Shown: piece after piece, positions 21,070 through 24,208 of the stretch | Numbering within the stretch: the first letter of the stretch is position 1 | Layout: the number at the start of each line of letters is the position of its first letter | Source: an uncultured Granulosicoccaceae bacterium | GTDB taxonomy: Bacteria > Pseudomonadota > Gammaproteobacteria > JABXHR01 | Length of the DNA stretch: 24,208 nucleotides | NCBI GenBank assembly: GCA_937921805.1 | Contig: CAKZUS010000266.1 | Coordinates: forward strand, 1 to 24,208 | Direction: 5' to 3' | Notes under the pieces: model-generated | Told to the model about the DNA's origin: nothing | Databases searched by the model: none | Seen by the model: the letters and a program-made list of their open reading frames with translations, nothing else | Program-made: the position numbers and the translations under genes

Positions 21070-21298
21070 TACCATGGCGATGTCATTCTTCAGGCGTGTG
21101 CAACAAAAAAGCATCACCGTAAAAAAAGCGTAAGCATTTTGAGGCAAAGAGGTGCTGTTTCTGAAGCGTCTCCTCGATATCCGAGTATTTATGTATCAGC
21201 GCGCTGTTAAAAGCTTGAGCTGAGTCACATTTTCCCCGTAAAGTGGTTTCGTGTGAAATAGTCGCCTTAAGGCGGCTCTAAATCAGGATACCCGGAAG

Positions 21299-22270
21299 AT
21301 GCGAAGTCAGCTGTTCTCGCTCTTACTCGTACTGTCGAGTCTCAGTGCTCCCCTATACGCCAACGTAGATTTCAATCTCGACTCACGACTTGCTAGACAA
21401 AGCATCCCCCTCAAGAAAGGGTGGAATAGTGTGTTTGTTTGGGTGAAGCCTCAAGTGACGGATGGCGCCGATGCGATGCGCGCTGTGCTCCCAGAAGCGA
21501 TCAACATCGTCGCTCACTACGCACAGCCACTCAGCACCCGCGACACAGCGGACGATGAACTCATCGTGCCGGATTTGTCAGCGTGGCGTACTTGGCGCCG
21601 AGCCTCGTCACTACGTAACACGAACACCCTTCATGCATTGGATCACTCTAGCGCCTACCTCGTGCATGCCGACCATGATGTTTCGTGGACCATAGAAGGA
21701 GATTTCGCCGATTTTGAGTCCCATGTCCATTGGCAATCGGGAGCATTTTCCCTCACCAGCTTTCCAGTGTCGGTCAATCAGGTGAGCTTTTTTGACTATC
21801 TCTCCCCGCAGTCAGCAATTGATCATGACAACATATTTGGTTTCCAGAACGGACGCTGGCAAAAAATATCCCCGAGTACTCTTATCGATCCCAATCAGGC
21901 CTACTGGGTGTATGCCAAGCGCTACAGTAATTTTAATGGCCACTTTTCTGTGGAGTCTATGCCAGCTGTGTTATCCGGTGCCCATGAGTTTCAAGGGGTC
22001 GTTGACATAACTATTCCAGCATTCATAGATTCAGTGGGACTCTATATCAAGTCTTATCCTCCTTTGTGGGCTAAATCTCATACTTATGGGGGAGGACATA
22101 AACGAAAATACCAAAGTTTATCGAGTGGCTTGAACGTAGAAGTGCTTTTTGAAAACGATAGTAGACAACAAATATCGATACAAGCAGATGCGAAAGAAGA
22201 AAAAGTTGCTTTGCAAGTGCAATCGCAGCTAGGCGAGAGCAGATGGTATGTATTAGAGGTAAGCAAATGA
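21299..22270 (+). CDS. Secreted hypothetical protein
   Basis: 323-aa ORF; signal-peptide-like MRSQLFSLLLVLSSLSAPLYA; LKKGWNSV and AYWVY motifs; stop overlaps the next ATG. Confidence 0.85.
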   Translation: MRSQLFSLLLVLSSLSAPLYANVDFNLDSRLARQSIPLKKGWNSVFVWVKPQVTDGADAMRAVLPEAINIVAHYAQPLSTRDTADDELIVPDLSAWRTWRRASSLRNTNTLHALDHSSAYLVHADHDVSWTIEGDFADFESHVHWQSGAFSLTSFPVSVNQVSFFDYLSPQSAIDHDNIFGFQNGRWQKISPSTLIDPNQAYWVYAKRYSNFNGHFSVESMPAVLSGAHEFQGVVDITIPAFIDSVGLYIKSYPPLWAKSHTYGGGHKRKYQSLSSGLNVEVLFENDSRQQISIQADAKEEKVALQVQSQLGESRWYVLEVSK

Positions 22271-24208
22271 ATACGAAATACTACCCCGCACTGAGATGTG
22301 CAGTAAAGAAAGTGACAGAGATATTGGCATTTTTGTTTTTAGGTGCGTTTATCGTTTCTGGTGCGGCCTATGCGCAGCAATTCTGTGATGGCTATCAAGT
22401 ACAAGACGGTGAATGCCTCTTTTTCAAGCAGCCAATTAATGCCGTGAGTCCATCAAATGCTTCAATAGAAAGAGTCATTGATGCAACAGAATTTTCCGAA
22501 TCGGGGATGGAACTAAATTACGAAAACTATATAAATAATGCAAGCGCAGCGGTAAACGGAGGACAATGGTTCTCAATAGCCCGAGGGGGTCACTTTTTTA
22601 GTTCTCCTGATACTGCTGTGATTATGAATTTTAGTTTTGATGCATTGACTCGTTTTCAAAGCATAGTGATGTGGGGATATTCAAATGACAAAAATAGGAA
22701 TGAAGCCAGTCGTTTCCAGGCGCATTTTTCAAATGATGGAGGAAATAGTTTTTTTGATAGTGTTTATTTCGAGAACGATCGTGTGCTCGGGGCGAATGAC
22801 TCGCAAGAACATAGATTTGATAAAAAATACGATGCTAATTTTATAAAATTAGTTATTACCGGAAATGCGAAAACTCTGAATCTGGAAAATCACTTGCCTG
22901 GAGGAGACCGAGCCGCACTGCGAGAGATTAAATTTGTTGCAAGCATCTCCAATAGCTCCCCTGAATGGGTCAGCGAGTCGAGCGCAGTAGTAGAGAAAGA
23001 TGGATCTGTATCTGTTCGCTTGTTGGCTGAAGATCGGGAATATGACTCATTACAATATTCGATAAAGAATAACTCAAGTGGTCACTCTTTTTACATCGAA
23101 TACCCCCCTGGTCGTTCTTTTGGGAGTGTGAAATTAAAAAACCGCGAGCTTATTTTGCCTGAATCCGAAGAGCCCGAAGAGTTCTTCGTGACGGTGGAAG
23201 CTTTTGATGGATATACCTCTAGTGAGCATCGGATAAAAATTACTGTGCTTGGAACGGAGTATACGAACCTGTGGGAAGCCCGCGATGTCGAAACAGACGG
23301 ACTGCATCGATTCAATATTCGAGGTCGCGTATTTACGACTTTTGTGAAAGCTGGAGGGTGGATTCAAATTGCTCGTGATTACGGCAATGGGCAGGGAGCG
23401 TTACCGTATAGTGGCGCTCTGACTGAAGACAGTCGTGGAATACTTCATCCCGAGATATTGACAGCATTTGAGCGTCTTGAAAGCGCTCGTCTGATGGACT
23501 CTACACATCGGCTCGATGTCACGAATGATTCTCCTGGCTTACTCGCAAAGATTGCTAACCATTATCCTATTGGCCTTGGGGATTTTTCCAACGACGACTT
23601 TAGTCGCTGGGAGGGCCTTGGCTCGGAGCTATTGACCAGTGGCGATACTCAATCAATAGTAGATAAGAATAATTTGCAACAAGTGGTGTTTCAATCTGGT
23701 GCATTCCAATGGATACCCAATTCCTCGATTCAGCGCTACTCCTCAGTCGCAGATGATTTGGCAGATGGAGACTCTTTCGCTTTGTTTGTGAGAGCTAAAG
23801 AGCCGAGCTTTGATTTGCTTACAGGTGAGGGTTCCCAGTCGTCTCCATTTACATCCCTAGCTCAGGTGTACACAGTACAAACACCTGGGATTTACCACTT
23901 TAATATTGATGGCGATCGCTTCTCTACGCGTGTGAACGAATATGGTGAGATCGATGTGATCAGTGAGTCAGGCCCCGATACAAATTCTCCTCTTGAGCAA
24001 GTTCTCGACCTGCGCGATGGGGGGCGTCGAATACTGTCGTTAGATAGGCTCACTACTTTGGGTGAAGCGAGGAAAATACGAATAAAAACTGAGGGCTTAG
24101 AGGCTCCAGACAGGCTCAATGCTTATTCGAACAATATTCTCCTAGCTGGACGAATCCCTGCGGGGATACCCTTACACCGAGGTGCGATTGATAATCAAGT
24201 CAATTCTC
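22267..24208 (+). CDS. Large secreted multidomain protein (discoidin-like, cadherin-like and repeated unknown domain), 3' end outside the window
   Basis: Hand translation from ATG 22267 gives 647 codons with no stop: MNTKYY...ILAFLFLGAFIVSGAAYA|QQ signal; FSFDALTRFQSIVMWGY...FSNDGGNSF...DANFIKLVIT...ALREIKF; NSSPEW...LLAEDREYDSLQYSI...VTVEAFDG. Confidence 0.88.
   Translation, partial: MNTKYYPALRCAVKKVTEILAFLFLGAFIVSGAAYAQQFCDGYQVQDGECLFFKQPINAVSPSNASIERVIDATEFSESGMELNYENYINNASAAVNGGQWFSIARGGHFFSSPDTAVIMNFSFDALTRFQSIVMWGYSNDKNRNEASRFQAHFSNDGGNSFFDSVYFENDRVLGANDSQEHRFDKKYDANFIKLVITGNAKTLNLENHLPGGDRAALREIKFVASISNSSPEWVSESSAVVEKDGSVSVRLLAEDREYDSLQYSIKNNSSGHSFYIEYPPGRSFGSVKLKNRELILPESEEPEEFFVTVEAFDGYTSSEHRIKITVLGTEYTNLWEARDVETDGLHRFNIRGRVFTTFVKAGGWIQIARDYGNGQGALPYSGALTEDSRGILHPEILTAFERLESARLMDSTHRLDVTNDSPGLLAKIANHYPIGLGDFSNDDFSRWEGLGSELLTSGDTQSIVDKNNLQQVVFQSGAFQWIPNSSIQRYSSVADDLADGDSFALFVRAKEPSFDLLTGEGSQSSPFTSLAQVYTVQTPGIYHFNIDGDRFSTRVNEYGEIDVISESGPDTNSPLEQVLDLRDGGRRILSLDRLTTLGEARKIRIKTEGLEAPDRLNAYSNNILLAGRIPAGIPLHRGAIDNQVNS

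Follow-up and report, generated by a model that had tools for sequence, protein, structure and literature searches.

A low-G+C operon for exported proteins at the end of a Granulosicoccaceae contig, probably acquired horizontally and possibly the front of a giant-protein cassette

What is the low-G+C segment that closes contig CAKZUS010000266.1 of an uncultured Granulosicoccaceae bacterium, and does it open onto a larger system? The window analyzed here is this entire contig (C266, 24,208 nt), taken from a metagenome-assembled genome (MAG) that is 58% complete and comprises 1.81 Mb in 368 contigs. At 21070-24208, directly past a class II aldolase gene (otnC), lie two open reading frames (ORFs), ORF1 and ORF2, the second of which runs off the contig. 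We consider it probable that this segment was acquired horizontally and is the left end of a translationally coupled operon whose products are exported by Sec to the envelope or surface, and that it is the front of a cassette that in other bacteria includes a giant protein. The segment is made up of the following parts:

21070-21298, no strand: intergenic spacer of 229 nt from the otnC stop to ORF1, in which the composition starts to shift
21299-22270, plus strand: ORF1, 323 aa, predicted to be exported, from an unnamed family
22267-24207, plus strand: ORF2, at least 647 aa and open at the contig end, predicted to be an exported modular lectin-type protein

The first step is whether this DNA is foreign. 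An original prediction, made from the letters of the contig, held that base composition shifts after the otnC stop, and this is seen in both 500-nt and 200-nt windows. In 500-nt windows, G+C is 0.60-0.63 up to 21000 and then 0.51, 0.51, 0.40, 0.41, 0.46, and 0.46 to the contig end; in 200-nt windows, the drop is first visible at 21100-21299 (0.45 versus 0.60 just upstream), directly past the otnC stop at 21069. A count also returned the 19 G+C bases in 60 that had been reported for 22621-22680. The genome has a mean G+C of 0.579 (standard deviation 0.037, 1-kb windows, n = 3,076), and the 1-kb window starting at 22001 is the seventh lowest of the 3,076. Codon usage follows the same pattern. 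G+C at third codon positions is 0.495 in ORF1 and 0.393 in ORF2, against a genome median of 0.659, which places them at the 1st and 0.3rd percentiles among 900 ORFs of at least 300 aa. By codon-usage log-likelihood, ORF1 falls in the lowest 1.3% and ORF2 in the lowest 0.8%, and otnC and its upstream neighbor otnK are typical of the genome.

Neither ORF1 nor ORF2 is carried by any of 60 relatives, and a search of 399 other genomes of the class, from 321 genera, with a profile of the ORF1 family returned no match. Based on the deviant composition and codon usage and on these absences, the data support horizontal acquisition of the ORF1-ORF2 segment, as originally proposed. The segment provides a clean case of foreign DNA beside a sugar-acid catabolic operon in an uncultured bacterium. 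As to a vehicle, tblastn gave no match for ORF2 in 50,697 phage records and none for ORF1 in 72,556 plasmids.

The same break could also come from the assembly itself, if 3.1 kb of low-G+C DNA from another organism, for instance a Bacteroidota-like one, had been mis-joined to the contig or binned with it. The change is sharp and occurs at the extreme end of a contig, in an incomplete MAG of many pieces, and the named best relatives of the ORF2 domains are Flavobacteriia proteins of the type IX secretion system (T9SS). We nevertheless regard such an artefact as improbable. The shift falls within an intergenic spacer of normal size and interrupts no gene, and the G+C of ORF1 (0.48) is intermediate between the values of the host and ORF2. 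ORF2 is at most about 30% identical to any database protein and has no near copy in metagenome contigs. In addition, the MAG harbors other low-G+C genes next to host-like ones: a short gene at 0.39 G+C (C137:4269-5327) has host-like genes (about 0.57-0.62) on both sides, and two ORFs at 0.41 G+C (C58:2270-4470), near a contig end, have host-like genes upstream. The MAG therefore contains further small low-G+C insertions.

How are the two genes tied together? As predicted, they encode two proteins with signal peptides, their reading frames overlap by ATGA, and the second continues beyond the window after at least 647 codons. The signals concerned are:

22256-22270, plus strand: coupling signal, with GAGG (22256-22259) followed after 7 nt by ATGA (22267-22270), where the ORF2 start overlaps the ORF1 stop
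21299-21361, plus strand: ORF1 signal peptide, residues 1-21, predicted cleavage between LYA and NV, read from the translation
22267-22374, plus strand: ORF2 signal peptide, residues 1-36, predicted cleavage between AYA and QQ, read from the translation

Both signal peptides were judged by eye from the translations to be of the signal peptidase I type, and that of ORF1 lacks a cysteine, so ORF1 is not a lipoprotein. Tight coupling also occurs in relatives, as in locus L002, where the gene junctions are a 1-nt gap and a 4-nt overlap. Such an arrangement would allow ORF1 and ORF2 to be made in fixed proportion through the ATGA coupling and then exported by Sec. ORF1 would be a co-exported accessory or assembly subunit, and the large ORF2 product might bind carbohydrate ligands on particles, other cells, or matrix. 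The two proteins would also be physical partners; a complex prediction for ORF1 with ORF2 residues 37-647 scored 0.00 and, run without controls, counts neither for nor against binding.

ORF1 is the part of the locus that connects it with other bacteria. It has no match in Pfam or NCBIfam, and a word-index search returned one homolog, P0002 (29% identity), from a Verrucomicrobiales MAG; one source gives the conflicting label Pseudoalteromonas tetraodonis for the origin of P0002. A two-sequence alignment, scanned against one genome per species, led to 39 loci; locus L051 was not used for any claim. The 39 loci belong to Verrucomicrobiota, Thermoanaerobaculia and other Acidobacteriota, Hydrogenedentota, Nitrospirota, Desulfobacterota, Lentisphaerota, a Campylobacterales MAG, a Pseudomonadota MAG, and others, and the family spans about ten phyla. 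Two regions can be distinguished in ORF1:

21386-21943, plus strand: conserved N-terminal domain, about residues 30-215 (BLASTP E 1e-22 to 1e-6 against the locus homologs)
21956-22267, plus strand: C-terminal beta-rich region, about residues 220-323, weakly conserved (columns 230-400 of alignment A4)

Membership of ORF1 in this family is clear from BLASTP (E down to 1e-22) and from an hhalign probability of 100% against a 604-aa protein of Paraglaciecola, with whose N-terminal half it shares 32% identity over 227 aa (E 2e-20). The first gene of the Verrucomicrobiales locus matches it at a BLAST E of 5e-15, and the family profile, in which ORF1 itself is included, at 1.5e-61. Alignment A4, built from 33 family sequences, shows a signal peptide followed by the motifs L-x-x-GWN, AYL[IV], W, FNLxGF, and GEAYWVYC. 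ORF1 is the most divergent member and keeps every invariant column (G41, W42, N43, P51, W96, L121, G134, W145, and W203); it lacks the near-invariant cysteine after YWVY and has NQ where the family has GE. ESM Atlas features place it with unnamed Verrucomicrobiota clusters of about 320 aa, consistent with the family. The family profile found nothing meaningful in PDB sequences or Pfam, and a single-sequence AlphaFold2 model of ORF1 was unusable, with a predicted local distance difference test score (pLDDT) of 32. The C-terminal region is possibly Ig-like, judging from weak hints: designed Ig proteins among the PDB sequences match at E 0.13, and single family members give weak Cadherin-like or HYDIN Ig matches. 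A weak family match (E 1e-4, 22% identity) was also seen in L042, at the C-terminal end of a 578-aa ORF on a contig labeled Candidatus Pacearchaeota archaeon (G+C 0.33); it may be real, due to chance, or contamination.

What follows an ORF1-like gene elsewhere? The Verrucomicrobiales MAG (JBLHKE010000021) carries three coupled genes, for proteins of 335 (P0002), 398 (P0003), and 3,284 aa (P0004). Of the 29 loci with sufficient sequence downstream, 28 carry a P0004-like giant just after the ORF1-like gene; in nearly all loci without one, the contig ends within about 1-3 kb past the ORF1 homolog. The one clear exception is L020, where the ORF1 homolog is followed by a 1,000-aa protein and no giant. 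The prediction that a smaller secreted partner precedes a giant protein thus fits the ORF1 family, and for ORF2 itself the size is open-ended. About half of the loci encode a fusion of about 600 aa, with the ORF1-like part as its N-terminal half and a P0003 homolog as its C-terminal half; the two parts are therefore fused or adjacent throughout the family. If the first gene is short and unfused, as in the window, lectin-type heads can be encoded by the next gene itself: the gene after the ORF1 homolog encodes three LamG domains and Golvesin_C in L008 and six LamG domains in L027, each with a P0003-like module at the end, and in L009, from a low-G+C Campylobacterales MAG, the next gene encodes LamG and discoidin domains before the contig ends. 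In four loci, the gene immediately before the ORF1-like one encodes a SurA/PpiC-type peptidyl-prolyl isomerase (PPIase); a fifth locus has such a gene at a greater distance upstream. The cassette is also present in a cultured strain, Paraglaciecola sp. 25GB23A (JBDYKM010000016), where the order is PPIase, 604-aa fusion, 3,061-aa giant, and 1,075-aa FG-GAP/TSP3 protein, which makes it open to bench study.

The giants range from 2,000 to over 3,000 aa, and the longest complete ones have 3,061-3,284 aa. Their conserved part corresponds to P0004 from about residue 1,042 to the end, with an unannotated core of about 1,800 aa. The last 935 residues retrieve at least 2,918 proteins; the best 120 relatives of the core are at least 48% identical to it, have no Pfam domain on it, and are named "hypothetical" or "LamG domain-containing". 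In contrast to this conserved part, the N-terminal heads are variable and lectin-like, with LamG, Big_9/Cadherin_5, PA14, pentraxin, C-type lectin, SBBP propeller, P-domain, beta-helix/PKD, and MAM/Calx-beta modules. ORF1 is a small marker protein, and its family flags one of the largest uncharacterized cassettes for giant proteins among environmental bacteria. Ten Acidobacteriota loci, among them the Thermoanaerobaculia loci L010, L013, L015, L021, L036, and L044, have a second giant ORF, of about 3,290 aa, immediately before the ORF1-like gene. This second giant has lactonase-type beta-propellers and DUF11, CARDB, and DUF7507 domains. With giants both upstream and downstream, these are cassettes with two giants.

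Could the giant be the channel of a membrane-perforating machine of the Tc-toxin (TcA) type, which the ORF2 lectins would aim at its target? TcA subunits (PF18276) and the cassette giants are loosely alike: both are very large and exported, carry modules of the receptor-binding type, and have a long helical region toward the C-terminus. By language-model features, which serve as leads only, the named clusters nearest to the giant core are those of TcA_TcB_BD (scores 0.87 and 0.81). In Paraglaciecola, the gene after the giant (L055:15197-18424, 1,075 aa) encodes FG-GAP_3 and TSP3_bac repeats and has a faint TcdB_toxin_midN match on record, the sole hint of a TcB-like partner. However, hhalign gave a probability of 2.7% for the giant C-terminus (profile A3) against TcA C-termini (A5), searches of the core in Pfam, NCBIfam, and PDB sequences gave no match to Tc proteins, and PF18276 was found on none of the 120 listed family members and was not found in the genome of the window. 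The likeness to TcA is therefore unsupported at the level of sequence or profile, no TcB/TcC-type partner is established, and the window itself contains no giant. We consider a Tc-like machine very improbable. As to the suggestion in the original prediction that the large protein might be a toxin carrier, no toxin-carrier feature is visible.

Turning back to the window, what does ORF2 encode? After its signal peptide, four modules are predicted:

22459-22956, plus strand: discoidin (F5/8 type C) domain, about residues 65-230
22957-23247, plus strand: bacterial cadherin-like or Big_9-type Ig domain, about residues 231-327
23248-23808, plus strand: fibrinogen-like (FReD-fold) domain, copy 1, residues 328-514, complete
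23827-24207, plus strand: fibrinogen-like domain, copy 2, residues 521-647, of which the contig end leaves about 123 of 199 profile positions

A HMMER search of ORF2 against 1.84 billion representatives (clusters at 50% identity) retrieved at least 183 homologs, all of which match domain by domain, most of them through the fibrinogen-like residues 328-516; searches of ORF2 against NCBIfam and PDB sequences gave no match. The discoidin profile PF00754 matches residues 88-200 directly at E 2e-4, over positions 12-115 of 127, at 21.9 bits and hence below its cut-off of 28.2. In homologs of residues 65-230 (P0045, P0031, P0033, P0018, and P0020), PF00754 exceeds this cut-off. For P0045, P0031, and P0033, the best Pfam stretch overlaps the positions aligned to ORF2, and for P0018 and P0020 it belongs to another discoidin copy. 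From this alignment, residues 65-230 appear to form a divergent discoidin domain. The following region has no direct Pfam match; residues 218-275 can be aligned with every one of the 8-11 Big_9/Cadherin_4/Cadherin_5 repeats (PF17963, PF17892, and PF17803) that stand in tandem in P0065, P0096, and P0109; P0065 and P0109 were scanned with Pfam and are strong Big_9/Cadherin_5/Cadherin_4 proteins. Judged by domain content, the visible part of ORF2 is a predicted lectin-type head, in which a signal peptide is followed by one discoidin and one cadherin-like Ig domain and then by two or more fibrinogen-like domains. This agrees with the original prediction of a modular adhesin or glycan-binding-type protein, and sugar binding by ORF2 would fit these folds.

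The fibrinogen-like unit of about 190 aa deserves separate treatment. Copy 2 of ORF2 matches positions 3-123 of profile A1, a hidden Markov model from an alignment of 62 copies of the domain, with a domain E of 2e-24. No Pfam model or PDB sequence matches the domain; PF00147 is found on none of the 62 copies nor on ORF2, NF040941 is found nowhere in the genome at E<=1, and ORF2 has no NCBIfam match. A small two-domain homolog (P0016) likewise has no Pfam entry in the newer precomputed annotation. AlphaFold2 with the A1 alignment modeled the domain with a pLDDT of 91.3. In a Foldseek search of this model against the PDB, the top 50 hits were all fibrinogen, ficolin, angiopoietin, FIBCD1, or FGL1 (E 1e-3 to 4e-2, template modeling (TM) scores 0.37-0.49), and a shape search of the ESM Atlas gave TM scores of 0.71, 0.61, and 0.61 to three clusters bearing Fibrinogen_C. 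Three structure searches thus concur on a fibrinogen/ficolin fold and, despite the failure of PF00147 and NF040941, the ORF2 domain is predicted to have the fold of the fibrinogen C-terminal globe. The best Atlas cluster (TM 0.71) holds proteins of about 447 aa with discoidin and Fibrinogen_C and is 62% viral (Uroviricota, mostly tailed phages), so the pairing of discoidin with a fibrinogen fold is used by phages too.

Compared with the animal FReD lectins (ficolins, angiopoietins, FIBCD1, and intelectin; PF00147) and with GGGWT_bact (NF040941), the ORF2 domain shares the fold, whereas its identity is about 10-15% and no sequence model detects it. Neither the YCD...GGGW signature nor its cysteines appear in the family consensus; copy 1 of ORF2 shows KAGGW with no cysteine nearby, where the family consensus is G-Y-V-Q-V. 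ORF2 carries a domain of a bacterial fibrinogen/ficolin-fold family that is detected by no Pfam or NCBIfam model. The domain usually stands right after the signal peptide of exported proteins, which range from about 100 to 6,994 aa, most homologs having 200-1,500 aa. Its bearers include T9SS-sorted Flavobacteriia giants, a reprolysin-like protease, a DUF6701 protein, and He_PIG/TIG proteins. Tandem copies also occur in P0014, P0017, and P0028. P0017 (L056:5001-9434, 1,477 aa) starts with two of them and has PF26628 (DUF8202) on record; as PF26628 is absent from the two-domain P0016, it probably covers a different region. Among the best relatives, at about 30% identity, are proteins of Galbibacter sp. 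BG1 (WP_178949188, 6,994 aa) and Flavobacterium sp. 9R (WP_159691213, 4,845 aa). Like ORF2, these Flavobacteriia T9SS adhesins are modular and exported and mix Ig-like domains with fibrinogen-like heads. They differ in that their genes have no ORF1-like partner and in that their C-termini are Por_Secre_tail or gliding-motility domains that serve type IX secretion; the C-terminus of ORF2 lies beyond the contig.

Does the locus in the window then belong to the cassette? Homology of ORF1 to the first gene of the Paraglaciecola and Verrucomicrobiales cassettes, translational coupling, and a next gene for a large exported protein with lectin-type head modules are common to both. If the locus is real, the chances that ORF2 goes on into a P0003-like end, with a giant after it, seem to us about evenly balanced. 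We think it somewhat less likely than not that the window contains the left end of a gammaproteobacterial copy of a widespread, undescribed envelope machine with an interchangeable fibrinogen-fold lectin head. In that case, ORF1-family proteins would be its first subunit and would be diagnostic for a new class of exported apparatus that works at the cell surface or by contact, and the variable lectin heads would suggest modular retargeting of a conserved surface machine.

A number of results weigh against an acquired cassette front. Among the traits of a genomic island, the segment has deviant composition and absence from relatives and lacks the integrase, tRNA, and direct-repeat marks. As the original prediction had noted for integrases and att repeats, 21070-24208 holds no integrase-like ORF and the junction no convincing flanking repeats; no tRNA lies near it, the sole tRNA of the window being tRNA-Val at 638-713. 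Any right border is beyond the contig end, and no secretion gene or island border, both of which had been expected to the right, is visible. The first 647 residues of ORF2 match none of the 39 ORF1-family loci, and the fibrinogen-like profile matched no gene there, so that the expected co-occurrence was not borne out: the ORF2 domains never stand alongside ORF1 homologs in the fetched loci, and its head domains differ from those of the fetched cassettes except for the discoidin domain in L009. In contrast to the cassettes, the available sequence has no PPIase gene upstream of ORF1, no giant core, and no P0003-like module in either ORF1 or the 647 residues of ORF2; nor was such a module or a giant core found in the 58%-complete MAG by tblastn and profile searches at E<=10. 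The giant core is likewise missing from three large FReD-bearing proteins (P0039, P0036, and P0022). Where the context of FReD-domain genes was read, they stood alone, with P0016 and P0008 among T9SS-sorted genes. No continuation of ORF2 was found on the low-G+C contigs of the MAG, and metagenome contigs hold no relative or longer copy.

As an alternative, ORF2 may be a stand-alone lectin or adhesin of about 1,000-1,500 aa, with ORF1 recruited or left behind and no giant downstream. The size range of most FReD-like homologs, with the domain right after the signal peptide, fits such a protein, as do the occurrence of FReD-like genes alone among unrelated genes and the lack of anything in common between ORF2 and the cassette loci, and L020 provides a precedent. 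However, this is the only informative ORF1-family locus of the 29 that departs from the rule of a downstream giant, and the lectin-headed second genes of L008 and L027 still terminate in a P0003-like module. We therefore think a stand-alone protein rather unlikely and prefer the reading of the segment as the front of an acquired cassette operon.

Genes for giant modular lectins or adhesins that come with a small partner are of a known kind. What is new or unannotated here is the fibrinogen-fold domain family, the ORF1 family, and the strict link of the latter to an unannotated giant family. The window's own contribution is modest: the first 3 kb of a locus, cut by the contig end.

The otnC label, which was given in the original prediction, is plausible from the domain content of the predicted protein (Aldolase_II, E 5e-46). 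Upstream of it are a gene with SBD_N and NBD_C domains (otnK, of the four-carbon acid sugar kinase type) and a dehydrogenase gene of the 6-phosphogluconate/3-hydroxyisobutyrate type (NAD_binding_2 and NAD_binding_11). No otnK homolog was found in the three nearest genomes searched. The spacer between otnC and ORF1 holds an imperfect palindrome at 21245-21292 (70% complementary); a search for plus-strand promoter-like sites at 21070-21298 found none, and an Rfam search around the spacer gave no match at E<=1. Elsewhere in the genome, contig C363 (20,783 nt) has an overall G+C of 0.485 and several large ORFs, two of them of 882 and 488 aa, and may be a mobile element or a mis-binned contig. Within the window, the sole other low-G+C spot in 500-nt windows is 17501-18000, between a MiaB-like radical-SAM gene and the dehydrogenase gene, with a G+C of 0.48 and a strong negative AT skew.

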